Source: Schmidtea polychroa
Lineage: Eukaryota
Direction: 5' to 3'
Assembly (NCBI GenBank): GCA_044892525.1
Contig: CM097885.1
Location: 264,120,001-264,184,000, forward strand
Length of the DNA: 64,000 nucleotides
Positions 1 through 53,491 of this stretch are shown here, in pieces (positions within the stretch are counted from its first letter, which is position 1; each line of letters starts with the position of its first letter). The notes below the pieces were generated by a model. The model was not told the origin of the DNA, searched no databases, and was given only the letters and a program-made list of their open reading frames with translations. Position numbers and translations under genes: made by a program.

Positions 1-2
1 TG

Positions 3-817
3 TCATCTAATGATTTTCCTTGTAGTTGTAGATGGAATGGGGTTTCGTATGCTAGTTTCTTTTTCAATTCTCTGATTTTTGTGGTTGGGTGTACCTCTAC
101 TTCCTCTACATTTTTAATTCGAATTCGATATCTTTCTTGGGTGTCTTGTGACCATTCATGGTTTCGCCACTTCCCAATGATTTGTTCCAATTGTTCCGGG
201 TACCATTCGTTGTATTGTCGGTATTCCTCTATAGTCTTTACTATCTCTCTCAGATACTGGATATTGTCCGATATTTTTAGGATGAAATTGGCTAGTGCTA
301 TCGTTTGCCTTTTTTGATTCTTTGTCCCCGTCTCTAAGATGTCGCTTAGTTGTTTGTATCTTTCTCTTTCTTCTCGATCTCTCGCTTCTTTTGCCTCTTC
401 ACCGTCTATGTCGGCGTACTCGCGTTCCTTCTTTCTCATCGTATGAATATGCCTGATTTCGGTTTCACTTTCTGACGTAACATCCGTTTCGCTTTCGTCG
501 TCCGATATCGATTCTATTTCGTCCTCTTCGTATTTTGGAGGTTCATCTTCCTCTTCTTCTGATTCACTTTCTGTCTCACCAATGTCTGTTTCTACGAAAA
601 TCCCTTTCCTGATTTCCCATTCTTTGTTTTCCGCATTCCACATCCTTTCCCATGGGGTTCGTCTGCAGGATCTAGTACTCAGTTTCTTTATTTTTCCTTG
701 AAGCTCTTTTTCTTTTAGCCACTGTTGATGAATTTCAATTATCTCTACTGATTTTTGGTATAACGTTTTCATCCTGTCTCTTATTTCTTTCTGGTATGTT
801 ACATCTCTTGTTCGGAA
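3..817 (-). pseudogene. Further decayed continuation of the polyprotein (acidic tract, coiled coil), one frameshift near 390
   Basis: Hand translation after the TAA at 818 stays open in the same frame (FRTRDVTYQKEIRDRMK...ESEEEDEPPKYEEDE...). It then shifts to EIEKKEKRYKQLSDILETG...YPEQLEQIIGKW. Confidence 0.6.
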
Positions 818-1549
818 TTAGTCCATGGGCAATATTCTGATGATTTGATGATTATCCCACATTCCCATTTCACTTAACGAGGTATCGTCTTCAGCCCGTA
901 ATATTATTTTATCGTACATCATGACTACATCATCTATCATCCCGTCGCTACTCTCGCTTCGTACTTTTTCCGTTATCTCTCGGTTTATCTTTGTTACTAA
1001 GTCATCCACCGTACTCTGATTACTCATCTTTATTCGTCGTTTCTCCTCGTTTGGTAGCCATATGGTTATTTCCAATTTCTGCGGTTGCGTTTCTTTTAAT
1101 CTTCCGTATTTGTGGATCAAATTTATGGTTCTCCAATCGCTCATTCGGAGCAATTCTGTATCTCGCAGTCGGCTCATTAGTTCATGCATATCTGGAGTTC
1201 GTCTTGCTATGAGCAAATCCCAGTTATCTTCGACTTGTTCTTGAATTTGTTTGATTAGTTTATCTAGATTCCGCCTTAAAGTGCATTGTTTTATTTGTTC
1301 CAATTTCAGCTTGATATTGAAATCGTATTCAGCCTTGGCGTCTTTAGCCCATTCATGAACATTAGCTGGTTGCTTCTCTTTATGCAACTTCAATATTTGA
1401 GTTTCTCCTGGCCAGATCAATGCATCTATTAGGTGCATGTCTGGTTTGATTTGTTCTCCTTGATATTGATACAGATATTCTTTCTTTCTTGAATTACCCA
1501 AATGTTCTCTTATCCAATCGAAAAGATCGTCTGTGACTGTATTTTTTAT
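818..1549 (-). pseudogene. In-frame continuation of the Gag polyprotein beyond a single TAG; contains two ubiquitin-like segments
   Basis: Same frame as 1550..3598 (ERI*IKNTVTDDLFDWIREHLGNSR...). UBL-like patterns YQYQGEQIKPDMHLIDALIWPGETQILKL and ITIWLPNEEKRRIKMSNQSTVDDLVTKI...DDTSLSEMGMWDNHQIIRIL. Confidence 0.7.
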
Positions 1550-3598
1550 CTATATTCTCTCGAGTCCTTTACTCGTTCCGATTTTTATTACGTAGCGTGT
1601 TGTCTCCGCTTGTTTCATTTTTTCCATATACTTCTTTATTATCGCTTTCTCCTCGCTTGGTATTAAATCTTTTTCGTTTCTTTCCAGTTTCATTATCTTT
1701 TGTATGAAACGTCTGTATGGTATGATGTCAATGAAATCCTGGTTTCTTACCACCACTGGAAGTATTTCTTTTACTTGTTTTATCGCTTCTTCTTTTTCCT
1801 TTCTCAGTTTCATCTCGATATTCTCATCTTCACTTTCGCTTGTCACATCGCTTTCACTTTCATCCTCATCTTCTCCGATCTTTTTCTTTAGTTGTTCGAT
1901 ATTTTCATTTAACTGTAATATTTCTCCACCGAGGCTACTCACATAATCCTCCTCGTCATCTGTTGACAATACCTTCTTTGTCGTCCTCATCATGTTAATT
2001 CGTAAATTTCTCATTCTTGATACTTTCTTGAGCTTTTTATTCCCAAATATCGTTAATTCTTCCGATTCTAATTCTTGTACCATTTCATGGGTTAAATGAC
2101 TAGTTTGTTTCTCGTTTCCGTCATTTATCGCTTCTGCTTCTGTTTTTGTTTTCTCATGTTCTCTTTCGATCTTATCTTTTATCTTTTTCCAAAATATTTT
2201 CTGGATTCTCTGATTTCCCTTTAACGGTGTTGTTGGGCTTTCCTTTTTGGTTTCTATAATTGTTTCTTTCAGTTTCTCTGGTTCGATCATAGGTACAACT
2301 CTTGGATTTTTACCGTAATTGTAACAATATTGCTCTTTTATCTCCTTTACCATTCTCATCATATTTATTCGTAATGGTTGTTCTTGTCGCTGCTGAATTC
2401 GCTCTCTTTTTATTCTCTCTTCCTCAGCTTGTAGTCTCTGCCATTCGTGTGCATGTTGTTGCACTTCATAATTGTTAAGATTCTCGGTGCTCCTCATCAT
2501 GCGTATATTCTGGGTTTGTTGTGGTACTTGTTCTTGTCTCGGTCTCATTATTTGTTGCATCATCTGCTTCATTTGTGAAATTTCTTGCATCACATTCATT
2601 TGTTTTCCCTCACTGGGGTTACTTTGTCGTTGCGGATTTGGTGCATAATTATTATTTCGCTGTGGTGGTCGTTGTTGTTGGCCCCTTTCTCGACAGTCTC
2701 TTGAGATGTGACCTGGTTGACCACAGTTAAAACATCCTCTCAATTGACATATATTTTCCGTGTGTCCTCGTCGTCCGCATCTATTACAATTTGCGTTTCG
2801 GTAACAATCTCTATCCCAATGTCCTGGTTTACCGCATGTTCGGCATTGTTTGTTATCGTTCGTATTTCGTCGATTATTACAATTATTTCCATTGTTCGAG
2901 TTGTTGCGTTCACTGTTATTCCCGTTTGATCGTCCTTGCGGTGGTTTGAAAATTTGGTGCGCACCTGGTATGAACTGATTCATCTTGGGTTCATGATTGT
3001 TGTTATCTCCATTTTCTGTTTTCACCGTAGCTGCTGCGATTCTTCCCTCCTCCTGCATGACATTCATTTGTGCCGGGAGGTGTAGTTCGCATCTTGTGGC
3101 CCAATCTATGGCCTCTTCTAGTGTTTTACACATCTGACATCCCACCGAGGCTCTTACCTCTTCCCGGCGTAGTCCTTCTATGAAATAACCAATTAGATTT
3201 TCCTCCGGCAAGTTTCCGTTCATGGCCTTCTTTGCCAATCTTCGCAATTCGCTTGCGTATAACGTTATTGATTCATTTGCTCTTTGTTTTCTACTCGCTA
3301 ATTCTCCTAGGGCTTGATTTATTGGTTTGCTGGCCCCGAATGTTTTTCTCAAAAATGTTTTGATGGTTTCCCAATTGTCTAATTTCGTATTTCTTTCTTT
3401 TGCTTCTAGATACACTTCGAGTGCGCTATCGCACAAAAACAGAGGCATTCGTTTGCTAATTGCTTCCGCTGTCCATCCGCACACATCGATATAGACTTCA
3501 AAATTTGTTATGAACGTTGCCAACTTGTTCGCATTCCCGTTAAACGGTTCGCCTCTAAATTTTTCTTTATACTCGTCGGTTTTTACCACATTCGTCAT
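1550..3598 (-). CDS. gag: Gag-like polyprotein (retrotransposon capsid-like region, three CCHC zinc knuckles, long charged C-terminal extension)
   Basis: CRTCGKPGHWDRDC, CNRCGRRGHTENIC and CFNCGQPGHISRDC knuckles; N-terminal EPFNG..KLATFITNFE capsid-like region. The frame is open upstream to a TAA at 3919-3921. Confidence 0.9.
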   Translation of the reverse strand: MTNVVKTDEYKEKFRGEPFNGNANKLATFITNFEVYIDVCGWTAEAISKRMPLFLCDSALEVYLEAKERNTKLDNWETIKTFLRKTFGASKPINQALGELASRKQRANESITLYASELRRLAKKAMNGNLPEENLIGYFIEGLRREEVRASVGCQMCKTLEEAIDWATRCELHLPAQMNVMQEEGRIAAATVKTENGDNNNHEPKMNQFIPGAHQIFKPPQGRSNGNNSERNNSNNGNNCNNRRNTNDNKQCRTCGKPGHWDRDCYRNANCNRCGRRGHTENICQLRGCFNCGQPGHISRDCRERGQQQRPPQRNNNYAPNPQRQSNPSEGKQMNVMQEISQMKQMMQQIMRPRQEQVPQQTQNIRMMRSTENLNNYEVQQHAHEWQRLQAEEERIKRERIQQRQEQPLRINMMRMVKEIKEQYCYNYGKNPRVVPMIEPEKLKETIIETKKESPTTPLKGNQRIQKIFWKKIKDKIEREHEKTKTEAEAINDGNEKQTSHLTHEMVQELESEELTIFGNKKLKKVSRMRNLRINMMRTTKKVLSTDDEEDYVSSLGGEILQLNENIEQLKKKIGEDEDESESDVTSESEDENIEMKLRKEKEEAIKQVKEILPVVVRNQDFIDIIPYRRFIQKIMKLERNEKDLIPSEEKAIIKKYMEKMKQAETTRYVIKIGTSKGLERI

Positions 3599-4177: not shown

Positions 4178-4602
4178 CTAAAATGAAAAAATGATCTCGT
4201 GTTGCATCTGCTTACACGACTTCATCATTCTTTCTGCAACATTCAAACACAGACACCGTTTAGGGCCTCTGTTATGCTTCTCTTTATTCCCCATACAATT
4301 CCTCGTGGATTATAGTTACCCATCAACCCATAGTTTTCGTCGATTTTAAATTATCTATTTGGGGTAGTAATAATTATCTATATGGTCGTATCAATTATCT
4401 ATAGTTCCCATTTATAATAACGATAGGTCGTTGTCAGTTACTGCTTATCACCCCCCATATTTTCTTAATCCTTTTACGCGGTTCCGCTATTTACTTAATT
4501 TTTCGTCTCTGTTCCCCTTTACTCGGTTCTACTCTGAACCAAAAAATTCAGATTCGTTTATCCGGTTTAAACCAAAAATTCTGTAGACTTTTGTCTACTT
4601 AC
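4178..4602 (-). other. Intron in the leader upstream of gag (element 1)
   Basis: Donor cccaa|GTAAGTAG at 4602, matched by cccag|GTAAGTAG at 16112 in element 2. Acceptor ttttcattttAG|ATATC at 4178. Confidence 0.6.
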
Positions 4603-4862
4603 TTGGGATCCCCTTTAATTAATTAATTACCTTCCTTTTTACTCGTCATTTATTCCCACTTATTCTCTACTTTTACTATCTCCTCAATTCATTTTCCTTT
4701 TCCGATTCTCCTTTTCTACTAAAAGGGTTTTGCTTTCATCTTCTATGAGCTCGTTTAATCCTTTCTAAATTCGACTTCTCGTATCCCAATTCAATTCGTT
4801 TCTAGCTAGCTTAATATTCTATCTCATTATCAACTTAAATACTATCCAATCATTTTCTAGGC

Positions 4863-5390
4863 CTTTACGACTGGCTGGCACTTTTCAACAGCTCAATCTT
4901 CTTCCTTCTGACCGGTTGGACTATTCGACAACTCGATCTTACGACTGGCTGGCACTATTCAACAGCTCAATCTTCTTCCTTCTGACCGGTTGGACTATTC
5001 GACAACTCGATCTTACGACTGGCTGGCACTATTCAACAGCTCAATCTTCTTCCTTCTGACCGGTTGGACTATTCGACAACTCGATCTTACGACTGGCTGG
5101 CACTATTCAACAGCTCAATCTTCTTCCTTCCGACCGGTTGGACTATTCGACAACTCGATCTTACGACTGGCTGGCACTATTCAACAGCTCAATCTTCTTC
5201 CTTTCGACCGGTTGGACTATTCGACAACTCGATCTTACGACTGGCTGGCACTATTCAACAGCTCAATCTTCTTCCTCTCCAAACTGGCTGGACTTTTCAC
5301 AGCTCAGTTCTAATTTCCCTGACTGGCTGGACTTTTCACAGCTCAGTTCTAACTTCCCTGACTGGCTGGACTATTCAACAGCTCGGCCTT
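4863..5390. repeat. Tandem array: ~5.6 copies of a 74-bp unit (two ~37-bp subunits) followed by ~3 copies of a related 39-bp unit
   Basis: Unit cttacgactggctggcactattcaacagctcaatcttcttccttctgaccggttggactattcgacaactcgat; period 74 also shown by ORF starts 4990/5064/5138. Confidence 0.97.
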
Positions 5391-5970
5391 AATTTTTCGA
5401 CTCTGCATGCTTCCATCTTTTCTTTACCTTTATTCTAGACTGTCATCTTTCCTTTTATTTTTACTTTTTATTTGTCGATCTAATCTGTGCCGCTTGAGAA
5501 TGTTTGCCCTTTTCCCCCCTTGCTCAAAACGCAAAACGATCGCATTGATCCATTTCTACATTGGTATGGTGATCAGCCATACCGCAGAAACTTTTCAATA
5601 TTCGCGATGGTACCTCGCCTTACATCTCTTACTCGGGGTGATCGGTTATCCCTTCCCAACCGGTTTTCGTGTATCGTACCTCCCGAAGGTGGCTCGGTTT
5701 ATTCCCCCTTTAATCCTATGTTGGGACTAGCTCCACTTTATTTTATTTGTTCAAATTAAATTTATAGATGCTCTCTCTCTATGGTGAAAATTATCATAAA
5801 GTTACTGAATTCACAATAAAATGAACACGCAAAACATTCTATTCATTAGTTGGCTTAAGTCACATGCAATATACAAATTTACTAGAAAATTGTTGATACA
5901 TCAATTAAACATAAAGGATTTAGTCAAATCGTCAATCAGATCAATTCTTTCACCGAGTGCTGCTCGCGGG

Positions 5971-6450
5971 TTAACTGAAGTAAATCGTGTGCTTCTCCTT
6001 TATTGCACATACACATAAAGAACAATGCGTTAAACTGACGGCGCATTCGTCGCAATGGCTAAGGTGTCCACAAGGTAGAATTAGAATTCTGGCAGGTCGC
6101 GTCTTACAAATGTTACAAGTTCTCAAGGCCGCTGCTTTTTCTATTATCGAGGTTCGTATTCTCTGAGACAGAGTTTTTACTTGTTCGCGTATTCTCACAT
6201 ATTCGAGGTTCAGAGCGGGGTCGTCGAGTCGTTGCTGCATCCATTGGTAATGGACAGACAAGTCGGTGTTGGTATTTGTTGATCCCAATCTGTCGGTTAG
6301 AAAGTTTTGTTTGGATATCAGCGGTGCGTTGTGGCGTTGTTGCTCTAAGAGTTCTATTTGTTTCAGTTTCTCTTTTAATGTCTTTATTGAGTCGTTTTCT
6401 ATATCGATGAATCTGCTTAGCTGTTGTAGATGTTTCCTAGCTTCTGACAT
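5971..6450 (-). CDS. Coiled-coil plus C-terminal IAP/MDM2-type C3HC4 RING finger protein (no BIR domain seen); probably a spliced terminal exon
   Basis: CNICKTRPARILILPCGHLSHCDECAVSLTHCSLCVCAIKEKHTIYFS* at the extreme C-terminus; acceptor-like ttttttttAG|AT immediately before the ATG. Confidence 0.85.
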   Translation of the reverse strand: MSEARKHLQQLSRFIDIENDSIKTLKEKLKQIELLEQQRHNAPLISKQNFLTDRLGSTNTNTDLSVHYQWMQQRLDDPALNLEYVRIREQVKTLSQRIRTSIIEKAAALRTCNICKTRPARILILPCGHLSHCDECAVSLTHCSLCVCAIKEKHTIYFS

Positions 6451-6917
6451 ATCTAAAAAAAATGTGTTGTTATTATTTGTTTTTACTGGTATTACTAATG
6501 ATTTTATTATGTTTGTAGTTAATATCCGTTTGGCTTTTATTTGTTACTTTTTCTAACTTTTGTATTTTATTTCATCTTCGTAATTCCTCCGTCATATTTT
6601 CCACTTTAATGATTTACTTTTATTGTCATTACGTTCTTTCGTCTCCCTTTTTTAATTTAATAATTTAAAATTAAACATGGTAACTAATTCCCGTTTTCTT
6701 TTCTCATCATACTCTATCCTATTCATTTATACTCATTTAGGTTCGTTTTTATTCATAACATGCTCCATTTCAAACACAAACAGTTCGTATCATCATTCTA
6801 TTGCACTATAATATCGATTCATTTCAGTCCCGATTCCATTTTTTATTATAATTAATTAAATTGTTAGTCTAACACATCGTAATACAATAATAGGCAATCA
6901 AACAATTCGAAATCAGA

Positions 6918-6935
6918 ATCCCGGCTGAGCCCCCA
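6918..6935 (-). promoter_or_regulatory. Primer-binding site, tRNA-Pro-like
   Basis: TGGGGGCTCAGCCGGGAT, 16/18 identical to the canonical tRNA-Pro PBS TGGGGGCTCGTCCGGGAT; starts 7 nt after ...GCCAACA. Confidence 0.8.
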
Positions 6936-7481
6936 AAAATCATGTTGGCATATGTGGGGAAAAGGAAATTATTGCACACACCATCATCTCACACACCCTG
7001 CATCATTACTCCGCTCAGATACTCCCCATACATACACCAAATGATCATGTACATATTCCCACGCATGGGCCCGTGGTGATGTTCCACGTTGGTGCTGCCA
7101 ACACGGGTTGGAAAAGGTTAGCAGGTGAGCCTCTGCCTTAAGACTACTCCTAACCCTTCTCGGTACGGGTTCTACGGTGCCTTAGAAGGTCTTACCCCTT
7201 GCTTCACACGAAATCCAGTCTGACCCTGGTCCGAAGGGACGACATTTAAGTTCGTAGCATATCTTCAGAAGTACCTTTCACTTAAATAAGTCACAGCAAT
7301 CCATGCATACTAGGGACAAAATGCAAGGATTTGAACAGTTATATTGAACAACAAAACCACAAAGAAATACCTTTATCATTAAATAAATAAGCACAAAACA
7401 TCAACGGGCGTATATAGGATAACGTCACTTCTTCGAGTTTTCTTATGCTGCACGAAAATATTTAACCACTGGAAGGGGTCA

Positions 7482-8220
7482 TTACGGAAACCCTTCGCCT
7501 TCCGCGATCATCGCGTCGATGTCGACGGGCAATCGGTGGTCGGACATATACTTAATACCTTCTGCTGGAATTATGCGAAAGATTTCCTTAGATGGAACGG
7601 AATGGTTGGAGGATATTTCTTTTATGGTAGACTGAGCCACCGATAGGGACGCCTCGAGAGCAGCCATCGCGTCTCGGCGTTTCTGATTTTTCTCGGCTCT
7701 GGTCGGCCGTTTCCGTTTGCGGGACGACGGGGGGTTTTCAGTGTGCGGGGTGACGACGGGTGCCACCAGAATTGGATGCAAGATGGGGTCGGTAGGTCCA
7801 CCTACCACAGGTTGAGATGGGCGGTAGGCACGATCCATGCCCTTGACAGCTCGTAGTAGTTGGTTTGGATACTTGGTGATGAAGAGGGAAAACGTTCGTT
7901 TTCTCTATGACGGGGAATTCCCGTACCCGCTTGGCTAGCTCTGCCTCCGTGTATACCTTGTGGAGGGCTTCTGATTGGGCTTTGATTGTAAGCCGTTGGC
8001 ATCGGCTTTCCTCCAGCAAGCTATCTCTACAATGTTCTAACCGGAGGATTTTCTTTCGTTCCTCCTTCATTTGTGGCGGGGAGAACCACGTACCCTCATA
8101 GAGGTCAATTCTCTTCTTTAGAGCCCCGATGTATAGATGGAGCTGCGCGATATCTGCATTTTTATCGGCGCAGGAGAAACAAGGACGAGGAATTTTTTCA
8201 GAGCTGGTCGAGGTATTCAT
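7482..8220 (-). pseudogene. Unknown coiled-coil / basic-Pro-rich protein inside the LTR, split into two overlapping frames (160 aa and 118 aa)
   Basis: ORFs 7738..8220 and 7482..7838 overlap in different frames; acceptor ttttaatctttAG precedes 8220; locally higher GC; NLS-like RKRKRPTR. Confidence 0.5.
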
Positions 8221-8759
8221 CTAAAGATTAAAAGAAAAATTTATTGTCGATCGTAAAAGTTTTTCTGGAACGTTATTTGCATTTCGCATATGAGATTCAC
8301 AAGTTTCCAAATCAAACTATTCAATGGTGATCTACACACCCGTGTCGTTGATCGATACTCGCATTCATTCAAACCCAAACATTCAAGTTAACTCACTCGT
8401 TCTTTACAATTTTATGAGAGGAAAACGGGAATTTTAGACAGAATTCATTTATTATAGTTTCATCAATCGGTATAATTTTGCGGGCTTGACCCCCCCCCCC
8501 CTTCATATGTTCCATCGTTCGAGTACCATAACCTTTAACACCATTAATATATTTCTTATTGTCCAATATTGATAAGTCTACTCCTCATTACTAAGTTCTA
8601 TGAAGTTAAGTTTGTATAAATAACAAAAATTTCGGCCTTGCTTCTTTGCATTATTTTAATATTAATCGAAATTGAAAAGGAAATCATAATATATATGTTT
8701 ATTTGAACTTTGAACGTGAATTGAAAATTTTATTTAGTTCAAATTTTTGCCGTGAGGTT

Positions 8760-10264
8760 GTCATGACGACTCTAACACAGTATGTGGTTGTGACTAAATA
8801 CTGTCATTTACTTGAGTGCTGAATATGATGTGTTGCAATGCATGCTTGTGTATTGTCAATTTCTACTATTCTGTTGACCACTATGTCTTGGTGTGTCTGG
8901 TTCGGATTATGTTTTCGAGAGTGGCTGTCTAATACTCCTAGCAAAATTATTTACGGGGATACGATCTCCCCTGACGTCCCTGCACGCAATGCTACTATCT
9001 CGTTTAACTTCGTCATTGTTATGTAATGATTAGGTCACCGAACAAATTTTCTTTTTATGTGGATTGGTTGGCGGCATACTGAGAGGGAATTCCATGTGAC
9101 GTGCTGGTAGGCATGTATTATCAAGATCCGGACTCTTAGAAATCTCTACCCGATTCGTTATGCGTGTCAGCCTTACCCATTACGCGACAAATCACTGGAG
9201 AATTGGAGCTGATAATTTATCTACTATCGTGGTCGACTTCAGATATCCGTCTGTCAATGCTCTCACTGTATCTATGGTGATGACGGTTATCGCTCTCTCT
9301 CACTGTTCAGATTCCCTTTAGTCATCTAATTCGGTTGGGTATAATCAGACTGAAATCCATTTGGCAGTTATCTGATAACTTCGACAACGGCTTCCCTCGC
9401 CTCTATCGTAAGTGTTCTGATAATTTCTCAGGATTTATTTACTCTATTTTCAGAAAAACAATCCTTATCCATAGCCTAAGAATCAACAATTCACTTAAAA
9501 GTGCACCGATGATGGATTTTGTCGTTAACTCCTTAGCGATCCAAATCCCTACCGAAAAACTTGGTGACAGTCTGTGCTAATCTCGTTGGAATTTTCTGTT
9601 TGCAACCGAAGACTATGATCCCTTCGTGTTCAGCCCACCGTAACTCGGGGACTTAAGACGTAACGATGTCGAGCCTGGACTTAACAAAATATGATTATGC
9701 CTAATATTAAAGAATTGTATTTCGAATTTCTCCGGCGAATCTCTGTGGATTTGTTTATTCGCCTCAGGTGTCTTAATTTCATCTTCTCCAAAAACAGTAT
9801 TTTCTATGCCGAACACAGACATCGCTCAGTGGAAGAATCCCCCGTGCACTATTAATATCGTCCGCCTGATGTCCTCACCCCTCCTGACCCACCTAAGGAC
9901 GGCAATCATCGCTGCCACCGTCTTTAGACCGCCAGGAAGGACGATTCGATCTCCTCAATTCGTCAATTTCAAAAATTTTTGTAATAATTATGATTAAATA
10001 AATGGCATGGTTTTATAAATTAATCGTTATAATAAAATTTACTTGTCTGGCGACCACGCCGCCTGAGTCTCGAATATGATGCCGTCCCACAATAATCACA
10101 ATTGTTCAATCACCTCTATTGCTATAAATCTAGCTTCATCCCGATTTTCAATGTCACTTCTAGTCGCCATCCTCGTGGCTTCTTCTACGGATTTATTGGA
10201 CTTTCCCGCATCATATTGGATTCCCAGACGACATCGTCGCCAGCACCATAGAGAGAGAGGAACA
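8760..10264 (-). pseudogene. Heavily decayed spliced coding region of unknown family inside the LTR
   Basis: Protein-like stretches broken by stops and shifts (RDEARFIAIEVIEQL*LLWDGIIFE; AAMIAVLRWVRRGEDIRRTILIVHGGFFH*AMSVFG; HQDIVVNRIVEIDNTQACIAT); donor near 10043. Family not recognised. Confidence 0.4.
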
Positions 10265-10609
10265 TCTTTCGAAAATTAAACATTTATTATACTAAAAGAA
10301 TTTATTCAATATCAAACTCATAGAAATATTTAATATCATTATCATAAAAAGCATTTAAATCAATCACCATACTTACCAAATAATATCCTTCGAGAGTGTC
10401 AAAAAATGGTAAATGTTCAGGATTCTACTGAATCGTTTTCCTTTTGGTTCCGCTAGATACTGGTAGTCGATTTTGTTTTCGTTGAATCGTAGTCAAAATG
10501 GTGTTCAAGATGCTGTAGAGTAGCGATTAAAAGTGGTCCTCATAATAAAACAAAAAATTTTTACCTGTAGAGTAGCGATTAAAAGTGGTACTCGACAGAT
10601 TTCTCTCTT

Positions 10610-10640
10610 CCGTTATATACTATTCTTCGTCCAATCAGGA
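10610..10640 (-). promoter_or_regulatory. LTR promoter (inverted CCAAT box plus TATA)
   Basis: CTGATTGG at 10638-10631 and GTATATAA at 10620-10613; same arrangement at 20578-20624. Confidence 0.55.
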
Positions 10641-13469
10641 CGCGCCTTATCTGTGATATTTTTTATTTATTATTATTTAGGTGTTTTTATTGAAATGTGT
10701 TGGGTTTTAATAATTTTTCCTATTTGTATTAATATTTTATTTATTTTAGTATTTTTTTATTATTTTCCTCCCGTTTTCCTGCGCGTTTATTGTCATTTTA
10801 TCGTAATACAATTTTTGTTTTAATTCGCCTATACATTTATTTGAGGATTTCTATTTTATTTTCTTAAATTTCTCGTTTATTTCTTACGTTTTTTGTTATT
10901 TTATGTTTTTTCCTTTTCCTACCATGTGTGTTGGGTAATTTCACCTTATTTCGCCTTATGCATTCTATTGTTTTATTGGTTATTTTTATTTCTTTTATAT
11001 TCTTATTTCTTTTATTGTTATCTGCTTTAGTTATTCCTATATTTCTCGTGATTTTATTGAAAATTTGTTTTATCCTATTTATTCGTTCTTAGCCCAATTT
11101 TCGACACTCTCGAAGTTTAGCCCAACAGTAGTCTGTTTTGAGTTTTGTTGTGGAATGATTGTTCTGACTCGTGATAATATTTATGTTATAAAACTATGAA
11201 CTGAATTTTTGAACAAATATTGCCAAATTGGTGAATGAATGTAGTGATGGTCTTCGTAGTATGGAAACTTCTTGGAAGGTACACTGATAGATGAAGATGT
11301 AATAGTATGAATGATTATATGCATATGATATATAAGAATGTATGGATTAGAGGGTTTATGAAAAAGCAAGCTACATATGATTCTGATATTGAGTTGTCGA
11401 TACATACAGTGTATGATAAGGAATGTTTAAACCAATTATGCTCTACATGTAATACTTTCTACACATACCAAACCAAGGGTAGAGTACCCAAGGGTGTTAA
11501 AAGGCGTCGGTAAAAGGAAAAGATTAAAGCCTAAAAACGATTGAATAAACATTCAAATAAAAAATACGATAAGACTCGACAGATAACAAAGCACCAAACG
11601 TTAAATAAAGCAAATGATAACCATGCCTTAGCTTCTGCAAATGTGAATCTGAGACGAACGACATTAAAGATAAAGATATGAGTTTACCAGACGAAATAGA
11701 GCGAATCAACAGATTCTACTGAAAGTAAAAGAAAGTGAAGACATGGAAAGACATCGAAACATCACGAATAGAAATAATAACTATATATCATCAACACCTA
11801 GAATGAACAAAAGCGTTAAGTAAAAGAAAAAAAACAAGAACTAAACTTGTCTGTAAGATAGATGAAGGGATAAAACTCGCTGGTAACTCGAAAAGTAATA
11901 TGAACCAAAGACAATCGAGAATAACTATTAAAAAAAAATAAAATAAAATAAAATCACAGTATAAAAATGGAGCAAAAAATAAATCGAAATAAAATCTCCG
12001 GGACAAATACACGAGAACTAAGTTAAAGGGCAGTGAAAAACTTTACAAAATAGGCGAACATCACAGACACCAAGGGTACGTAGAAAATGAATTCTAAAAC
12101 TTATGTAAAACGACTCGGGAGAATAACAAATTATATACAGAAATCAATGAAAGTAAATATACAAGGTACGAGAATAACATGATGGATATCAACGAAAAAG
12201 ATCTAGCGAAAGAAACCAGGGAGCTCAAGGTTAGCCAAAGTAAAATGAATATACAAGACAGTTATACATACGATGCTCATATTAATAACCGGAACGAACT
12301 ATGAAAAACTATCCAACGTCAAAGATAGAGAATGAGAAACAATTAGAACCAGACGGGTGAAATATACAGCAAATGAAAGAGTACAGAACACTAAACTAAG
12401 AACAGTGAAAAGAGATCTAGAAAGTATCACGAATTACGAACCCACATACATAGAAAGGGTTATGACTATATATAGTGTGAACAATGAATATATAAAGGTA
12501 TATGATTATATAAAATTATAAGTATATATATCAGCGCGGTATAATTAGTATATAACTTCGGGAAGTAAAATGAAATAAAATTCAGATAAAAGATTATGAA
12601 TCAATATAGGTGAATTAATAGAATGAAACGGATCACAATGGAAATCAATCCCAATACCACCACAGGAGAATTATGGAAGCAGAAAAGCGTCATATTATCG
12701 TAAATAGCATTAGCTATACAGAAGCAAGGAATCTCATGGAGGAACAATCTAATCGAAAATTTGAACAATGAATTTGTTCGTGAGAGAATAATCAAGGACC
12801 AGAGAGGAAAAATTGAACTAAAGTGAAAAGAAATAGAACAACTCTAATGATAAAGTTAAATGCAAGAAATGAACTAATAAGAATAGCTGGGGAAATCAAG
12901 GAGAGAAAGATATGATAAAAATGCAACGGATAATATCAGACGTAAAAAGGAAACGGGAAAAGGAAAATGCAGGGAGCTGAAGATGAAATACAAATAGTTA
13001 TAACAATTACAGCATTATATTCATGGAAAATAGTCATAAAATGAAGCATTCAATATACCGAGATGGAGGTGGAATGAGTAGAAGAACACTTGTACCGGTG
13101 GTTTCTGTTGCGTAAAGGAGAAAAACAACGAACTATTAGCATGGTCATAACATTGAAAAGAGACGGTAATGGCAGAACTGAGTACCAAAAAGAGGACTAA
13201 TTGTATATAAATAATTGCATATATCGGTGTATACACCCCAACCAAAATGATATATAATAAAAGTAGAGGACCGATCACCATAAACAAAGATAAAATAATG
13301 CGAAAAATCAAAAATATTAAAATCTACGCCTATTTAAGAGTAAGGAAAATCAATCAGAAAAAATGGACGTTTGGCAAATATTGTAGAGAGGACACGAGAA
13401 CAAAATACTGAGAACCGAGAGAACACAAGATAATAAATAAATTAAATAATGAATGTCGGGGACGACATT

Positions 13470-13484
13470 TGGCGAAGACGCGGA
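13470..13484 (+). promoter_or_regulatory. Candidate primer-binding site of element 2
   Basis: ...GACGACA tt TGGCGAAGACGCGG: CA end followed by TGGCG. Cognate tRNA not identified. Confidence 0.4.
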
Positions 13485-15155
13485 GGAAAAATGAGATCAA
13501 ACTAAGATAACAACAAACGGGAGATCAAGATGAAAGTCAAAATGGACATGAGCAATAATAAGAACAATCGGGAAAAAGTATACAAAAACATGATTGACAG
13601 AAAATGAAGAGCACACATATAACAAAATAGAATATGAACAAATAAACACAATAAAAAATGACAAGGAAAACACAGAACGAAATGAACAAACATGAAACAA
13701 CAAATAACAAATTCACAGAAGGAAAGCAAGGCCAAAGACATTTGAACGAAAAGGCAAAACAGCGAGAAACGACAAATATAAAATGAAACATGATACAGTG
13801 AAACAGAACAAAAAAAAATTGAAAGCTTAACATCACGACACGGTCAATTAAAATAACAATAGATGCTAACAAAAATGAGATCAATTAGAAATATCGAACA
13901 AAAGTTTAATTAGGGAAAACGAACATACTGCCAACTTTTACTATGGAGCAAAAAGTTACAATAATGAAAAACGAACGGACTGTCTACTTTTATTACGAAC
14001 TATAAAGTTACAATTGTGGGAATTTCAATGATAAATTTGAATAAATTCAGAAATGATGGAAGCAATAATATCAACCACTCCAGGAACAGCTAGGGAGAAA
14101 TGCGTACAGATGTAGATATCCAGATATAGGTGGATATATGTATATGAATATATGTTTATGGATAAGGGTATATGTATAAGTATATGAGTGTATATGTAGA
14201 CATAGATAAACAATTAAATGAGATAATGAAAATAAATGACCAATCAAAGTTACGCGCCAAAAGTAAAATAACAAATAGACGCGGAAATAAGTTAAAAACA
14301 TAAAATATAGGGAGTGGAACAAAGAGGCCCATAAACAGAAAAACAACAAACAAATTTTGAAAACGTAAAATATACGAAATGAGAAACATTATGACGGGGA
14401 AATCAGTGAGGTAACATAAAAAATCAAAGATAAGGAAAATATACTAATACGGAAGCGTGATAAATTACAAAATTGAGCAGGGATGGTTAATAAATAAACC
14501 ATTGACGAATAGAAGGGTAACGAATAAAATGGATAAACAAATATTAACGAGTGATGCGAGAGGGATCTGCCTGAGGAAATAGTGAGCATATTAACGAGAA
14601 ACAAGTTAACTAAAGCGGTAAGAGTAAAAGCGATAGCAATAAGACGTTAACTAGACAAGAGACGTGGACATATTTAGAATAATGAAGAAGGACCAAGAGT
14701 AATCGAGATAAGTAGATTAAGAGCACGACGTAAAAATGAGAATAAAGTCCTACGAAAATTGAGAGCAAATGAATAAGGAAAGATTTTTCTGTTAGGATTT
14801 AGGAAATCCACAACCTATGAGCTACGCTCAGCGTAGTACGGATAAGGCCCAGGAAAGTACCAACTGTCCTGACGAAAGATGTGGAACAGGGCCCATCGCA
14901 TATACTGGAACATCTCTGCGTGTGACTGATCACCACACGATCGGAGATCGACCAGTGCGAGTGTTTCGCATCCGGAGTCAGGAGAGTGGGGAAAACCTGG
15001 AAGAGTAGTAAAAAGAAGCATGTAGGAGAAATAAAAAGAAGACCAAGTAAATGGGAAAAGAGAGAGCGAAGTAAAGAGAAACAATTAGAGCTTAAAGACT
15101 AAATTGATAGATAACCGGTAGGCAGAATGATAGGGACAAGGACAGTCAAAGGGAA

Positions 15156-15434
15156 GCGAATAATAGATGCGAATAATTGATGCGAATAATAGATGCGAAT
15201 AATAGATGCGAATAATAGATGCGAATAATAGATGCGAATAATAGATGCGAATAATAGATGCGAATACTAGATGCGAATAATAGATGCGAATACTAGATGC
15301 GAATAATAGATGCGAATACTAAATGCGAATAATAGATGCGAATAATAGATGCGAATAATAGATACGAATATTAGATACGAATAATAGATGCGAATAATAG
15401 ATGCGAATAATAGATGCGAATAATAGATGCGAAT
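15156..15434 (+). repeat. 13-bp minisatellite (GCGAATAATAGAT) ~21 copies
   Basis: Directly visible; lies between two copies of tccggagtcagg.gagtg.ggaaaacc (from 14980 and from 15434). Confidence 0.97.
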
Positions 15435-15599
15435 CCGGAGTCAGGGGAGTGAGGAAAACCCGTAAGAGCAGTAAAAAACAGGCATGCAGGGGGATAAACG
15501 TTTAGAAAGTGCACAGTAACTAAAGTAAAGACAACAAAAATAGTGAGCCTAGGACAAACGGAGAAATGGAGAATAAAACATGCATGTTAGGGATTATTA

Positions 15600-15820
15600 A
15601 GATCGAGTTGTCGAATAGTCCAACCGGTCAGAAGGAAGAAGATTGAGCTGTTGAATAGTGCCAGCCAGTCGTAAGATCGAGTTGTCGAATAGTCCAACCG
15701 GTCAGAAGGAAGAAGATTGAGCTGTTGAATAGTGCCAGCCAGTCGTAAGATCGAGTTGTCGAATAGTCCAACCGGTCAGAAGGAAGAAGATTGAGCTGTT
15801 GAATAGTGCCAGCCAGTCAT
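15600..15820 (+). repeat. Three copies of the same 74-bp unit as 4863-5280 (reverse complement)
   Basis: gatcgagttgtcgaatagtccaaccggtcagaaggaagaagattgagctgttgaatagtgccagccagtcgtaa is the exact reverse complement of the element 1 unit. Confidence 0.97.
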
Positions 15821-17289
15821 AAAGGCCTAGAAAAGCGAGAGATAGCAGTTAAGCTACAATGAGATAACACATCGAAGCTAAAGTTACAGTAAGATAGAAT
15901 ATTTAAGCTAGCTAGAAACGAATTGGAATTACATATGGGAATTTGAATTTAGAGAGGAAATAAACGAGCTCGTAGAAAAGATAATAAGATTATAGTGGAA
16001 AAGGAAGGGAAAAAAGGAAAATGAATTAAGGAGATAATGAAAATAAAGAATAAGTGTGAATAGATGATGAGTAAAAGAGGAAAATAATTAACTAATTAAA
16101 GGGAATCCCAGGTAAGTAGACAAGGTGCTACAGAATTTTTTTTTGGTTTAAACCGGATAAACGAATCTTGTTTTTGGTTCCAGAGTAGAACCGAGTAAAG
16201 AGTAATAGGTGACTTAGATATAATAGGATAAGTAAAATGGCGAAATTGCGCAAAAGTATACTAGGAAAATGAGGAGGGGTAATTAGCAGCAACGGACAAC
16301 GACCAATTGATATTATAATTGATAATTATAGATAATTGATACGACCCTATAGATAATTGATACGACCACATAGATAATTCAACATCGACGAAAATTTAGG
16401 ATTATGGTTATTCACAACCGACGAAATAGGAATTGTACATCATTCGGAAGTTTCAAAAGTAGAAGCGGACCAGATAATGATTTTTGAAGTTTCAAAAGTA
16501 GAAACGTGGAAATTAAGAATTTCTAATAAGTCTCGAAAGCGGAGACCAATGGGATAAGAATTTTGTTCCAGTTGATTGTTTTGAATGCAGAAACGAACGA
16601 GTTATAAATTTGTAAGGTAAAGAGTGGCAAGTTAAGGAATGATAAGATTGGTAAATTTTGATATATTAGTAGAAATGACAAGAAATGAATTGATATTAGA
16701 TAATCGGGTAAGAGAGAATGAATGAGAATATAAGGAGAATAATGGAAATTCTAGTTAAGAATGAGTTATAGAAATGACAAGGAATGAGTCAAGTACAGAT
16801 GAGAGGCAATACAAGTACAACTGTGAATATGGTTTCAAACTTAAGAAGAGAAACCGCTAAGTAAAACAGTGAACTAAGTCAAGAAAAACGGCAACGATAA
16901 CAATAATAGTTAATGAAAGGAGGAAATATAAAGGGTAACCGCTATAGTAAACTCAAGAAATGATTAAAACTGAAACAACCGAGAACAGAACAAGTACCAT
17001 AGTAATGAAGAAAAACTAAGAGGTAATACAAGTTAATAGATCGAGAGATAGTCATTCAAAGCCAAGAAAACCATAGAAACGAGGAAAAGGAACACAAATT
17101 AAAATAAATAAGGATCGAGAAAATTAAGTAGACCATGTGAATAAAGGTGTAAACTAAGGGAACGAGGGAACAAATATTAAGAGATGCCCAAGGAAACTAA
17201 AACAAAAATATTGCAATTATGTTATATAATATATAAATTATAATTTATAAAGATAATAAACGGTAAGGAGGAGTGATATTTTTCTAGTA

Positions 17290-19790
17290 AGGTAAATCAA
17301 TCAATCAAGATAACAGCCAAGTATCAACAATCAACCAGAATTCAACACCAAATCATTAAGTCAATCGATAAAAGAACCAAGTATGTCAAACGAAGAAGAA
17401 ACGAAAGCTGCAAAGAAAGGAAAACGAACAATCAAATTCAAGCAAACGTAAGAGGGTGAAAAGGAGAAATCAAAGCGGCATCTCAAAAACGGAAAGTTGA
17501 CCCTCAAAATAGAGTGGCAAAAGGAATTGTAAAACAGTTAGTCGAAAAGTTTAAAACGCCAGTGGAACTTCATGAAAGAGGAAATAATGTAAAAGCAGAA
17601 CTAGTAAAAGACACTGAAACCTAACTAAAGAAAGAAACCAACGATGGAGAGATAATATGGATATATGAGCGAACAAGCTAGCTGAGATGCAAAATCAGAC
17701 AACCATCCGTCGAAACTATGCAGTAACATAATCAAGTATCAATCTGAAATAGAAAGAAAGCAACCTCCAATAATAAATGTATTACAATATTTGGAAGCAG
17801 ATCACAAATTGAAAACAACCCAACTAAACAACAACAAGGATGAAACACCTTACAGATCACAAAGGCACGAGAAGCAGAAGAAAGATGGAGTAGACGAAAA
17901 GAACTTCAGGCAAAAAGTGAAGAAGAGTATTGGAGGAGGAGAAAGGAAGAACTGTTGAGAGTTGATATCACTGACAGCCAGAGGGAAAAGATAGAAGAAA
18001 TGTGTGGAAGACAACAAAGAACAGTAATACAAATCAATATGATGAAAGTGGTACCGATCAACAAACGGGAATTACAAAGAACTCTGGACTCAAGAGTGGA
18101 AAGTGAAACAATCGAAAGAATAGAAAATGTAACATTGGACCATCAAAATATCAGAATCATTGAGAACAATCGGAGAAATTATAAAAATACGGAAAATTAG
18201 GCTGATATTACAGCAATCCAAGAGAATCGCATGAGAGCAGTCAACAGAAGATATTGCCACAAATCGAAGATCAACGAAGTCTACGAGAATCGAAATGGTG
18301 AAAATAATGAAAACATCGTGACAGAAGAACGGTAAAAAATGAAAATGAGATTGAACCAAATATCGAAAATAAAGTAAAACAGTATTGTAACCAAGGCCAG
18401 CTGCGAGGACACAATGAGCGTAATTGTTCTTTGAAAATGACGGGTTGGAATTGTCAGAGAATGAGGCATTGCGAGAAGAAATGTCGTCGTACAAAAAAAA
18501 AAAAAAAAAAAGGTGTAAAAACGAATGTAAAAGAACAGGACACGTAATTAACAACGGTCCGAATGTGAAATCCAGAGAAAAATCAATCACGGAGAAGTAC
18601 CGAAGAACCAACCAAGCAAATACGCACTGAGAAAAGAATTCAACAGTCGGAGAGAAAAAATTGTCAACCTCTGATGTCAATAAAATAACAGTCGACAACC
18701 GTACGTAGAAGGGAAGAAACATGTAAAACTCAACGTATCCGAAGAATTGAGAAGACAATGTATAGAACAAGGTAACATAATAAAAGAATTTGTGATGAAA
18801 GAAAAAAGACAGGATGAATTGATAAGGATATGGGGACAAGTTGCCGAAAACAAAACAAAGAAACTGAAGTACAAAAAACAACGATACTCAGACTAAACGA
18901 AGAAGCAAAGTCAGCCGAATTAAGAATCAACAAATTAATGAATAAGCAAGATAAATGCAGAGAAATGGCAGTAGACACAAAAATGATGACGGCAAAGTAA
19001 AGGAAACTGAGGGTATAAAGAGTAAAATAGAAATTAAAGGAGAAGTGTAGATGAAAATAGTAAATAGGAAGTGTACATATGTAAAAAATTGATTTATAAT
19101 GTAGCAAAGGATAGATGTATAAGTAATTAAATAAAAATGGATCAAGTAATCAGTTGGGAAAATACAAAATTTGAACCCCCACAGTGGTAAAGGAGAACAG
19201 AGGCCCAAATGAGAAGAAAGAATATAAATCCAGAAGAAAGATAAAAGTGCAAACCCGGAAAGAATGAGTTAAACGAATATCTAAAAATAATACCTAATTT
19301 GGAAACCCTAAGCGAAGAACGGTAAAAGATCCTGATAAATGAGACGAAAGTCACAGACCCAGTGACATTAGCAACTTAATCAAATCAAGCGAACTTAGAC
19401 CAAAATCGAAAATAATTCGAGTTACCCATTAAAGAAAGAAAATCCCTTAATAAGAGCAATACCGTAAACAAAACCACCAAAGAAAACCAAAAGAAGACTC
19501 AATGTGTCAAATCACCTAGTTAAACAAAAGTTCCGAAGACCCTTGAGCAAGGTCTGTCATATACCATCAAATGATCCAGAAAATCAGAATCCCAGCCTAA
19601 AAATTCAAAGAGAATCCGGGAAAACAGTCAAACCCCGATAGGAAGAATCCTATGATCTTCGGTAAGTATTACGAGCTAATTATGAAAATCAACAACAGGA
19701 GTCAAACATGCCTACAAAACCGAGCCGAAAGATTGAAAACCGAACCCAGAAACGAGAAGAAACAACCAACTGAAGAATTGATCCAGAAAT
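17290..19790 (+). pseudogene. Decayed polyprotein of element 2; capsid and zinc-knuckle part apparently deleted
   Basis: Fragments PPIINVLQY, KAREAEERWSRRKELQ...RTVIQINMMKVV and ELRINKLMNK parallel the post-knuckle region of element 1; many stops and frameshifts. Confidence 0.6.
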
Positions 19791-20039
19791 AAAACTGTTG
19801 CATGTGACTTGACTTGAGTTTGGACATGGTATAAGTATGTATGTGTATTATGACCAGTCACTGTACGTGGCAACTGCTTGAATTTTAGCTTAGACCTTTT
19901 TCTGATAATTCAATTTTAACATGTCTTAAACTGTTATAGTATGTTTATGGGTTAATGGAAATGTAATAGACTATGATCTGCGAAATTCATATGTCTAACA
20001 GAATTGCGGGACGCAATTTTAACGGGTCCCGGAGTGATT

Positions 20040-21451
20040 TGTTGGGCTGAAGCCGAGAACTGAGAGTTTGTTTTAATCGATCGAAAAATACCTAACACAA
20101 AAACCGCAAAGTTGGAAAATTTATGACCAAGGTTTAATTTAAAATAAATGAAATAAATTACATCACACATTAAGAACCAATAAACCCCGTATAATAGAAT
20201 AAGAGATAAATAAATTTAACAAAAAATTCAACACTTAAAAATTTAAATAGAAAAATAATAAAATATAAAATAGAATTAGTTGAAAATTATTTAAACAATA
20301 TAAAAATTAAATCGTCAAAAATAATAAAATTAGTTAGCATTATATAAATTGTAAAGTTTATAGAATTAAATGGTTATTCAACTTATTAAATTTAAAGAAT
20401 AAAAATGTTTAAATTAATAAAAATTAATATAACTCAAATTATTTAAATTATAAAATTTATAAAATTAAAATTAATAAAAATTAAATAAGAAATTAATTAA
20501 ATTTATTGAATTAAAACAAATAAACAATTGCACACACTCATGCATGTATGCAAGACTAATTAAAAATTTCTCGCACTCTGATTGGATAGAGTGGCAGCAA
20601 ATGCATGAAAAATCAGTATAAATACTGATCACAAATTCATTTGAAGGACTACTTTTTCTCTAACATCAAAATTTAGTGGTAGACAGTGAAGCTCTCAGTT
20701 TTCGATTTTATGCCAACGTGGATTTGGTAATTTATTTTTTATTGTTGTAGTAATTTTACGAGATGATTTAATTTAATATGCAATAAAATTTTTAGTTAAA
20801 TTTTCTTTTGTTATTTTCTTTTAATTGTTTAATTTCATTTAGTTGTAGGTATTAAATAATAATTTTTATTGTGCTCAATTTTTATACTAACTGATTACGA
20901 ACGTTAGTACCGCTGAATTGAGATTCAGCATATCATGGTTTGAGGTACCTTCGGGATGCTCAGACTGGTGGGTATGCTGGTTTTTCAATCGCGCCGCTGG
21001 ATTGGGCCGGAATGTGGGGGCTTCCTCACGGGTCCTATCGCTGGAAGTACTGTGGTCAAATGTAGGTTAGGACTGAGAATACAGGCAGATCCCTGCTCAA
21101 ATTTTTTGAAGTATAACGTAAATATTATGGGAAGCGTGGATTAACTTGAAAATAAGGGCCAATCCCTGCTCAAATTTTTCAAAGGATAATTTAGATATTG
21201 TAGGAAGTGTAGAACAATAATTATTAGCTGGAAAATAAGGGCGGATCCCTGCACAAAATTTGATAAGAGAACAATTAGAAATACCCGTAATTGAGGACCA
21301 ACAACGATCCAAAAATAGCATATACAGTGAATAATGACGTAAGACCTTCTATCGGCAGTCTAGAACCCGAAAAGAAAATACAATGGGGAGTAGTTTTAGT
21401 AATAGAGCTCACCTGCTCATTGTTTTTTCGCCTTTGTGTACAGTACCAACA
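20040..21451 (+). mobile_element. Short LTR related to the element 1 LTR (3' end uncertain: 21304 or 21451)
   Basis: Starts TGTTGGGCT; CTGATTGG at 20578 and TATAAATA at 20617; donor ATTTG|GTAA at 20727. 20945-21060 resembles element 1 LTR 7260-7040 (ccttcgg...tcagactgg; cacggg.cc). No matching TSD found. Confidence 0.55.
21090..21270 (+). repeat. Three imperfect ~75-85-bp direct repeats (core gatccctgc.caaattt)
   Basis: Cores at ~21088, ~21162 and ~21244. Confidence 0.7.
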
Positions 21452-42569: not shown

Positions 42570-44446
42570 CAACTGAAAATGATTAGAGGAGCTTCAAAGC
42601 CAAATTTCCGTAAAAGTATATAAATTTCGGGTTATTAATCGATACCGGATAAAGATAAACCAAGTTGCATCGGTCAAACAGTTTTGGAGTTATGTAAACT
42701 GCAAATGTATGATCTTTGGCTAATTATCGAAATCAATTAAATTGCATTATCAACATTGTTGCGAGTGACAAAGAATCCTTAATAGACTCTGATAGGATAA
42801 TTAAATGAAAAAAATTGTGGTATTTTTTATAAAGATTGGATATTTCTGCGACCAAAATGTTATAGTTTTTGATTCTCCTATTTTTGAGTTGTTTCGATAT
42901 TCAATTGCGATGGTGCAGCCTCCATTATTCGAGCGTGATTATTGATTTGTTCTTAACGTATCCATTGACTAAGTGTTCTGTGATCGGAGGACTAGTTGGA
43001 GTATCAGCAGCAGCTTTGCAAAATTTAGCATTTGTAATGTGCATCCGATATAGAGGAGACATTTCGTGCATACACTAATTTTTCCAATTCCAGAGTTTTG
43101 AGGACATGGAGAGTAGTAGGATTGGAGCTCCCCCGGCCACATACACCCCCTCCCCCCCGGAAAAAAAATTTTTAGAACGATGCCACATATTTTTAGAACT
43201 ATTACGTGATCGATGCCTAATATTTTTAGAACTATTACGTAATCGATGCCACATACTTTTAGAACGATGCCACATATTTTTAGAACTATTACATAATCGA
43301 TGCCACATATTTTTAGAACGATGCCATATTATTAGTGGCCCAGCGGGCTCACACTTTTTTTCATCCCAAAGGTTAATGTTCCCGCCATCAGATTTTATTG
43401 GACGATACCTCATCTTAAAGCCCAGTGCAGGACCTTTAAGATGTGCTATAGGTATTTTATATATCTTTAATAGTTTTAATGTTATTAACTTTTAATGACC
43501 ACCATCTTTTCAAAGTTAAATTATTATTATTTGTCAAAATATTATTAATTGGCCCAGCGGGCAAACACTTTTATTCATCCCAAAGATTAATGTTCCCGCC
43601 AACATATTATATTGATCGATAGCTTATTTTAAAGCTCTGTGCAAGACCTTTCTAATGAGATATAGATTTTTATCATACGATGACTCATCACATTTTTAGA
43701 ACAAAGACAATGACTCATCATATTTTTAAATCGATGCCTAATATTTTTAGAACGATGCCTAATATTTTTAGAATGATGCATAATATTTTTAGAATGGTGC
43801 CTCTTATTTTTAGAATGATTACGTCATAATTTTAGAATGATGCATAATATTTTTAGAATGGTGCCTCTTATTTTTAGAATGATTACGTCATAATTTTAGA
43901 ACGATGTCTAATATTTTAGAATGTTACCTAATATTTTTTAGAATGATTACGTCATAATTTTAGAACGTTGCCTAATATAATTAGAACGATTACGTCATAA
44001 TTTTAGAACGATGTCTAATATTTTAGAATGTTGCCTAATATTTTTTAGAATGATTACGTCATATTTTTTAGAACGATGCCTCTTATTTTTAGAACTAATA
44101 ATTTTGTTTCAATTATCGATTACATAATAATTTAATTTTGTTTAAATCGTTGATTATATAATTTTGTTTAAATCATTGATTACATATTATTATTTTTTAA
44201 TTTTCAATATTTTCTTTTAAAATATTAACGCACGCGTGGAAGTTGTTATTATTATATATAATCTATCCGACAAGATATTCTGTCCCCCTATGGGTAATGG
44301 TCACAAAGGTACTGCTAAAACTTTAACATATTATTACACACAATGTAGAAAAAATATTATTAGTGTCCACACATGCTACAAGTTAGTATTCCCATCGATA
44401 GCTCATCTTAAAGTCTAGTGTAAGATCTATCTAATGATATATTATT

Positions 44447-44610
44447 NNNNNNNNNNNNNNNNNNNNNNNNNNNNNNNNNNNNNNNNNNNNNNNNNNNNNN
44501 NNNNNNNNNNNNNNNNNNNNNNNNNNNNNNNNNNNNNNNNNNNNNNNNNNNNNNNNNNNNNNNNNNNNNNNNNNNNNNNNNNNNNNNNNNNNNNNNNNNN
44601 NNNNNNNNNN
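44447..44610. other. Assembly gap (inside the left arm of the Polinton-type element)
   Basis: N run. Confidence 1.
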
Positions 44611-44872: not shown

Positions 44873-44907
<35 letters not shown>

Positions 44908-45261: not shown

Positions 45262-45323
<62 letters not shown>

Positions 45324-53311: not shown

Positions 53312-53380
<69 letters not shown>

Positions 53381-53491
53381 GTTTAATGGGTTGTATATGT
53401 GTGTAGAAGATATTTTAGGTTTTCACTAATATTGATACAAATAATTGTTAATGGGTCGTGTGTGTGTGTAAACCATATTTTAGATTTTTTG

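Follow-up and report, generated by a model that had tools for sequence, protein, structure and literature searches.

A 159-residue protein with a helical N-terminus, a C3HC4 RING and an IAP-type tail is encoded between the PBS and the Burro-like gag of a giant Ty3/Gypsy element in Schmidtea polychroa, and comparison at the sequence level establishes that its open reading frame (ORF) is an element-borne accessory gene and not a chance fragment. The ORF is probably under selection and represents, as a BIR-less variant, a kind of cargo that planarian Burro elements were already known to carry. As to its function we tentatively favour, at a little under an even chance of being right, an old accessory gene that would be expressed from a spliced mRNA and whose product would be a low-activity, dimerising RING lending its tail to an IAP-class ligase of the host or of an element. 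The window, that is, the whole stretch of 64,000 nucleotides that was analysed, contains the following parts of the element, with the evidence for each in brackets.

1..3598, minus strand: gag-led polyprotein frame with Retrotrans_gag and three CCHC knuckles, with stops at 1552 and 820, running off the window (ORF and Pfam)
4791..5391, no strand assigned: 74-bp tandem repeat, situated in the leader that separates the RING ORF from gag (repeat search)
5971..6450, minus strand: accessory ORF of 159 residues, helical N-terminus, C3HC4 RING and IAP-type tail (ORF, Pfam, PDB, structure model)
5974..6012, minus strand: 13-residue tail behind the last Cys, with Val as linchpin and Tyr at Cys+11, the position of Phe616 in cIAP1 (sequence comparison)
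6013..6117, minus strand: RING core C112-C146, 8/8 zinc ligands, last CxxC without proline (Pfam and sequence comparison)
6124..6450, minus strand: N-terminal helical region, residues 1-109, family-specific and of no known family (profile and low-confidence model)
6935-6917, minus strand: PBS-like TGGGGGCTCAGCCGGGATT, 7 nt past the LTR end CCAACA (sequence)
6943..11127, minus strand: 5' LTR of 4,185 bp with the ends TGTTGG (11127) and CCAACA (6943), the 3' LTR lying outside the window (inverted 6-bp ends)

The minus-strand frame is free of stops from 5971 to 6543, and from the ATG at 6450 it specifies 159 residues with the C-terminus TIYFS*. The preliminary description had called it an intact RING ORF on the element strand, and this is upheld by the translation, by a Pfam match to zf-C3HC4_3 at residues 110-151 (E 1.2e-8, above the curated cut-off) and by dinucleotide shuffles of 5400-7000, none of 500 of which held an ATG-initiated ORF of 159 residues (the longest reached 112). 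Its described place just downstream of the PBS, which we take to be of the tRNA-Pro type, is likewise correct, the distance being 485 nt, and this PBS is common to contigs whose flanks are unrelated. The RING was modelled confidently (pLDDT 79-88), and the N-terminus was predicted to form helices at residues 3-41, 64-75 and 78-109 with a pLDDT of 35-70. Residues 1-108 had no match in the Atlas, and a word-index protein search with the RING-ORF protein returned 63 candidates of which none was significant.

A protein search against 1.84 billion representatives yielded 582 matches at E 0.001, and among the 150 matches listed nearly all cover the RING only, with P0002 (160 residues, 26% identity, E 5.7e-16) and P0005 (29% identity) covering the whole length. 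P0151 and P0155, close relatives of P0002, are also whole-length homologues, and the identities of these proteins to the window protein lie at 25-29%. When a profile was built from the N-terminal parts of the homologues, leaving out both the RING and the window's own row, the window N-terminus scored 29.5 bits, whereas the highest score among 1000 shuffles was 9.3; the profile columns derive from an alignment of which the window protein had been a member. The RING homologue in P0005 stands N-terminal to a gag which is 45% identical to that of the window over 222 residues (E 6e-56); P0005 is a predicted chain without DNA context, and it still puts the ORF upstream of a gag of the same family in a much diverged element. 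Contigs of four public runs were compared with 5600-7000, and 853, 429, 6 and 61 of them aligned, the larger sets spanning all identity bands. The joints 6078-6918 and 5741-6043 occur with one shared depth in run X2 and one in run X5, which we read as pointing to a diverged relative ordered PBS, RING core, downstream block. The whole-length homologues, the gag join of P0005 and the contigs of the copies together exclude a chance fragment confined to a single copy, and the ORF is element-borne as had been proposed. As to whether all family copies carry it, it is present in many diverged copies, but not provably in all, because in one contig of run X5 the PBS is joined to 5702 and nothing resembling the ORF lies between them, and because a search of the related plus-strand element at 11-21 kb of the window, whose leader is 81% alike over 850 bp, found no RING or gag remnant, so that not every relative carries the RING ORF. 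No loci of the RING-ORF type were found in the viral contigs or metagenome contigs searched, and an Atlas search with P0002 returned generic RING clusters only.

The best PDB matches by sequence were cIAP1, cIAP2, XIAP and BIRC7 (E about 1e-8), and the same four were matched by fold (PDB 6hpr, 3eb5, 4ic2, 4auq) with an rmsd of 1.2-1.8 Å over about 60 residues. Baculovirus IAPs match too, and since IDOL/MYLIP ranks among the IAP RINGs by fold and scores about equally, 'IAP-like' is used here as a class label, descent not being proven by it. In common with the RINGs of the four IAPs, the protein has a pre-RING helix, a C-terminal C3HC4 RING, a 13-residue tail and an aromatic residue at Cys+11; in contrast to them it has no BIR, no linchpin Arg (which is absent from XIAP too) and no CPxC proline. 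Membership of the IAPs calls for at least one BIR domain, and none is present: Pfam gave no BIR match in the window, and a profile of 17 BIRs, run against the window in six-frame translation with stops ignored, reached at best 3.8 bits as compared to 229 bits for the control. The IAP-like RING and tail without a BIR, as first described, are therefore borne out by Pfam, the PDB matches and the profile search. A RING tree of 137 regions and 73 columns, built by a quick method and leaving out P0001, P0003, P0035 and rows without the full RING pattern, puts the window protein in one group with P0002, P0151 and P0005 (SH-aLRT 86) and more loosely with P0040, P0122, P0068 and P0039 (SH-aLRT 87). The N-termini of outer members are weakly supported as related, 0, 60 and 1 of 500 shuffles reaching P0040, P0122 and P0068, respectively. 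No branch of this tree with a value of at least 95 contains the window protein, and no strong branch names a donor. The tree was accordingly rejected as an argument that the RING may descend from a host IAP among BIR-bearing proteins.

According to the accessible part of PMC6349121, the tail residue Phe616 of cIAP1 supports the donor ubiquitin in trans, and Arg606 is its linchpin. The basic linchpin typical of dimeric RING E3 ligases is absent from the RING-ORF protein, the residue being Val in the window protein, Ala in many other copies and Asp in P0002, P0151 and P0155. Eight family or near-family proteins could be scored, three of them mutually close and four linked to the family only weakly, and not one has R/K at the linchpin, versus 86/135 RING matches (49/135 other matches are thus likewise without R/K), or the CPxC proline, versus 89/135; the tail aromatic is kept in 8/8, and the Ile after the first Cys pair is also kept. 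The preliminary description had missed that both are absent, as well as the fact that apoptosis- and ubiquitin-related cargo had already been described for Burro elements. In RNF38, as stated in the accessible text of PMC12326332, Val, Ala or Asp at the linchpin cut the affinity for E2-Ub 21- to 28-fold, and the tested variants other than K/M, Ala included, were minimally active. Because zinc ligands and dimerising aromatic tail are retained in the family, whereas the linchpin Arg is missing, a weak or partner-type RING is favoured. The protein would bind zinc and dimerise via its pre-RING helix and tail, as cIAP does; with Val, Ala or Asp as linchpin it would itself activate E2~ubiquitin poorly, and its tail Tyr could still support the E2~ubiquitin of a partner in trans. 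Most likely its role would be like that of MDMX, in partnership with an IAP-class RING encoded by the host or by an element, and the stability or the targets of that partner ligase would shift in favour of cells expressing the element. MDMX is the weak partner in the MDM2-MDMX heterodimer. Tail packing in trans is described for that heterodimer in the accessible part of PMC6349121, and the likeness, a proposed tail donor to a more active RING, is an analogy only; the PDB sequence search gave no match between MDMX and the RING-ORF protein.

A loss of activity is not proven by the missing Arg and the partner reading is not forced, because XIAP, whose linchpin residue is Tyr, is an active ligase and because 49 of the 135 other RING matches have no R/K there either. 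It is possible, though on the unlikely side, that the protein is instead a stand-alone homodimeric E3, in which the N-terminal helices would recruit a host silencing, restriction or cell-death factor for ubiquitination by the RING dimer, perhaps with an E2 that is independent of the linchpin Arg. The retention of all zinc ligands, of the Ile that follows the first Cys pair and of the tail Tyr would suit such an enzyme, as does the functioning of XIAP with a non-basic linchpin. Large DNA viruses, moreover, encode small RING proteins that lack a BIR and are annotated as ubiquitin ligases; those of an iridovirus (413R), Marseillevirus and Pithovirus likewise combine a helical N-terminus with a C-terminal RING, the likeness being limited to the RING, with an rmsd of >13 Å beyond it. 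Against a stand-alone ligase stand the joint absence of the linchpin R/K and the CPxC proline from all eight proteins and the minimal activity of the tested non-K/M linchpin variants of RNF38.

The low-activity partner RING that we favour would probably be made from an mRNA of its own, and candidate signals for one were found as follows.

10613..10635, minus strand: CCAAT-type box (ATTGG) and TATA box, putative LTR promoter (sequence)
10371..10590, minus strand: candidate first exon, with the donor G/GTAAGT at 10377/10376
7482..8221, minus strand: second candidate acceptor AG/ATG (8221) and LTR-internal ORF in two overlapping frames (sequence)
6453..6462, minus strand: candidate acceptor for the RING ORF, T8-AG (6454-6453), with the AG 2 nt before the ATG (sequence)
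4178..4195, minus strand: third candidate acceptor, the next ATG being the gag ATG at 3598 (sequence)

Unspliced RNA has 86 ATGs upstream of the RING start, so translation of the ORF from it is unlikely, and we infer that splicing is therefore the simplest route of expression, which would also take out the PBS. The LTR promoter would produce a short first exon, spliced from 10377 to 6452 (AG/AT-ATG, the candidate start of the RING exon), and the product would be a PBS-less sub-genomic mRNA. The acceptor-like site previously described before the ORF is indeed there as sequence, and it is a candidate only. Each of the candidate acceptors at 8221, 6453 and 4178 precedes an ORF, namely the LTR-internal ORF (minus strand, frames of 160 and 140 residues, for which Pfam gave no convincing family), the RING ORF and gag. 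The sites at 8221 and 4178 are the two top-scoring of the 213 YAG sites between 10376 and 3599; the third-ranked, at 6444, uses the T-run whose first AG is that at 6454-6453, and the latter AG is itself absent from the best 12 of the 213. Several contigs of diverged copies match up to 6454-6478 and then depart. Contigs of run X8 cover the ORF, some of them passing unspliced through the acceptor, and those of run X7 do not reach it; both runs are RNA by guess, the candidate first exon had no match among 23 of 234 contig loose ends, and the donor lay outside the compared stretch 5600-7000, so that these data weigh neither way on expression of the RING ORF. The 579-nt gag leader is free of ATGs, which was considered as a signal and set aside as not significant, 64/1000 shuffles being ATG-free as well. 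A possible 52-nt mini-intron (10564-10513, minus strand), with a repeated 25-mer on both sides, holds the sole ATG of the candidate first exon, and a donor-like G/GTACGT at 8094/8093 would fuse the first 42 codons of the LTR-internal ORF in frame to the RING ORF, the chance of this being 1/3. At 5719-5747 (minus strand) two AATAAA motifs are followed by CCCAACA, which resembles an LTR end and may serve the RING mRNA as an internal poly(A) site or be a remnant of an LTR end. Antisense to the LTR, two open stretches of about 100 codons at 9284-9997 (plus strand) have no Pfam match.

With one donor and three acceptors, PBS-bearing genomic RNA would be left with retained introns, and this, together with the degenerate catalytic positions of the RING, would suit a factor of the element's own cycle that is not a ligase and uses the RING as a dimerisation module only, be it in exporting RNA, in assembling particles or in controlling the ubiquitin-like parts of the polyprotein; a precedent reported in the accessible part of PMC10309623 is CERV of Cer1, an LTR-element protein required for export of genomic RNA. 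We regard such a factor as distinctly unlikely, as Pfam and the Atlas gave no RNA-binding motif or CERV-like match and as the length and aromatic residue of the tail fit the E2~Ub-supporting tail of IAP RINGs.

Whether the ORF is maintained or merely carried was assessed from its intactness and from its copies. In the preliminary description the intact ORF was set against a gag that had collected several stops, which is overstated: the gag frame has only 2 stops in the 1,199 codons that lie between its first ATG (3598) and the edge of the window. Because of this low rate the contrast is uninformative, a 159-codon frame being expected to escape stops in 77% of cases without selection, and the intact ORF beside a decayed gag was rejected as a sign of selection (P 0.77 by chance). 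Substitutions likewise did not bear out selection. The 22 listed within the ORF (in 40 of 348 rows) comprise 7 synonymous and 15 non-synonymous changes with 0 stops, none of the 22 being frame-breaking; 7/22 is neutral-like as compared to the 27% expected under neutrality (p 0.39), and a synonymous excess was rejected on that account. Most of these changes are conservative, and the sole one at a zinc ligand is silent. No indel inside the ORF was seen among 12 of the 55 listed (0/12). In the best 30 of 1,374 aligned pieces, gaps were present in 0/8 of those at least 87% within the ORF, in 11/16 of those wholly outside it and in 6/6 of those straddling its edge, at divergences of 14%, 12% and 13%, respectively; the difference between ORF and flank has a Fisher p of 0.002, to be read in the light of pieces that are not independent and of AT-rich flanks that gain indels more easily. 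The neutral-like substitutions and an intactness expected by chance in this copy would both be met with in a RING fragment that was captured from the host and travels with the element without serving a function. Such a neutral passenger is nonetheless highly improbable, as length, start, zinc ligands and tail are all the same at 25% identity, as P0005 has a homologue in the same place before gag and as the ORF pieces are gap-free. The RING-gag join in P0005 probably reflects an artefact of gene prediction, and it is scarcely credible that the ORF is the first exon of a RING-Gag fusion, as the single predicted chain of P0005 would have it, when that join removes the last zinc ligand and the tail and P0002, P0151, P0155 and the window protein all stop 13 residues past the last Cys.

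In the parts lying within the window the element matches the Burro type, having a multi-kb LTR with a PBS and a polyprotein that is led by Retrotrans_gag and CCHC knuckles and runs into extra domains. Elements of the Burro type are further marked by an env, a PR-RT-RH-IN block and a total length near 30 kb, and the remainder of the present element lies beyond the window. The ubiquitin-like parts of the gag frame gave Pfam matches below threshold to Ubiquitin_4 (E 0.078), UCH_UBL1 (0.14), PI3K_rbd (0.047) and ubiquitin (0.0088), and a single-sequence structure model of the ubiquitin-like part had a pLDDT of 37; the earlier suggestion that the RING and ubiquitin-like parts of Gag may form a ubiquitin-manipulating toolkit draws on these sub-threshold matches only. 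A word-index protein search with gag gave 556 candidates, 0 of them significant, and Pfam found no MATH domain in the part of the element inside the window. The related, apparently non-coding element at 11200-21200 (plus strand, opposite orientation) has the 74-bp repeat and leader (15598-16437) and, at 20041, an LTR-type start with CCAAT, TATA and donor-like sites that resembles the start of the window LTR. Elsewhere in the window, a large foldback occupies 43000-54300, with arms of 2,401 nt and 322 nt that are 100% complementary around 49000-49550 and more inverted and tandem repeats outside them; reverse transcriptase and RNase H fragments of another LTR element lie at 58672-59698 (minus strand); and a 212-residue open frame at 63357-63995 (plus strand) appears by eye to be a hAT-type transposase fragment, with no Pfam match at E 0.05.

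Planarian Burro elements have, according to the accessible part of PMC6431247, a Gag with 2-3 CCHC knuckles, a Ubi2/SUMO-like part, MATH, BIR and BCL2-like cargo and upstream accessory ORFs. The present element resembles Burro/GYPSM1 as described there in its multi-kb LTR, its CCHC Gag leading a long polyprotein, its upstream accessory ORF and its cargo linked to apoptosis and ubiquitination; it differs in that the upstream accessory ORF of Burro/GYPSM1 encodes MATH_TRAF_C, a stand-alone RING ORF not being named in that part of the text. Burro1 carries B-IAP, a protein with BIR and RING for which a protective action against caspase-mediated apoptosis in stem cells has been reported (Lee et al. 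2026, Dev Cell, as relayed in the accessible part of PMC13465017). Both are IAP-type RINGs borne by a giant planarian Ty3/Gypsy element, whereas the RING of the window, unlike that of B-IAP, has no BIR and lies behind a family-specific helical domain. Our literature search found no BIR-less RING ORF between a PBS and a gag; the primary Burro papers (Lee 2026, Grohme 2018) were outside that search and may show one. In the accessible part of PMC5408684, on extra ORFs of bdelloids, there are 0 occurrences of 'RING' or 'ubiquitin', and the accessible parts of PMC11410931 and PMC8532177 hold nothing on this RING ORF. Should the Burro papers already draw the ORF, the value added here would be the analysis of the linchpin and of splicing.

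A wider proposition, rather unlikely as a whole, is that giant gypsy elements of flatworms combine a programme resembling that of complex retroviruses, in which one LTR donor and three acceptors may serve the LTR ORF, the RING ORF and gag, with an old family of BIR-less, linchpin-less RINGs that would redirect host IAP-class ligases as tail donors in heterodimers. If this is true, the ORF would encode a transposon-borne, MDMX-like regulator of host cell death that is separate from the B-IAP of Burro1. Its small size, 159 residues on a predicted mRNA of its own, makes the protein readily amenable to expression, knock-down and assay. A BIR-less RING that is separately encoded and has long been kept in related elements suggests a second route by which these elements may tune the ubiquitin and death pathways of their host.
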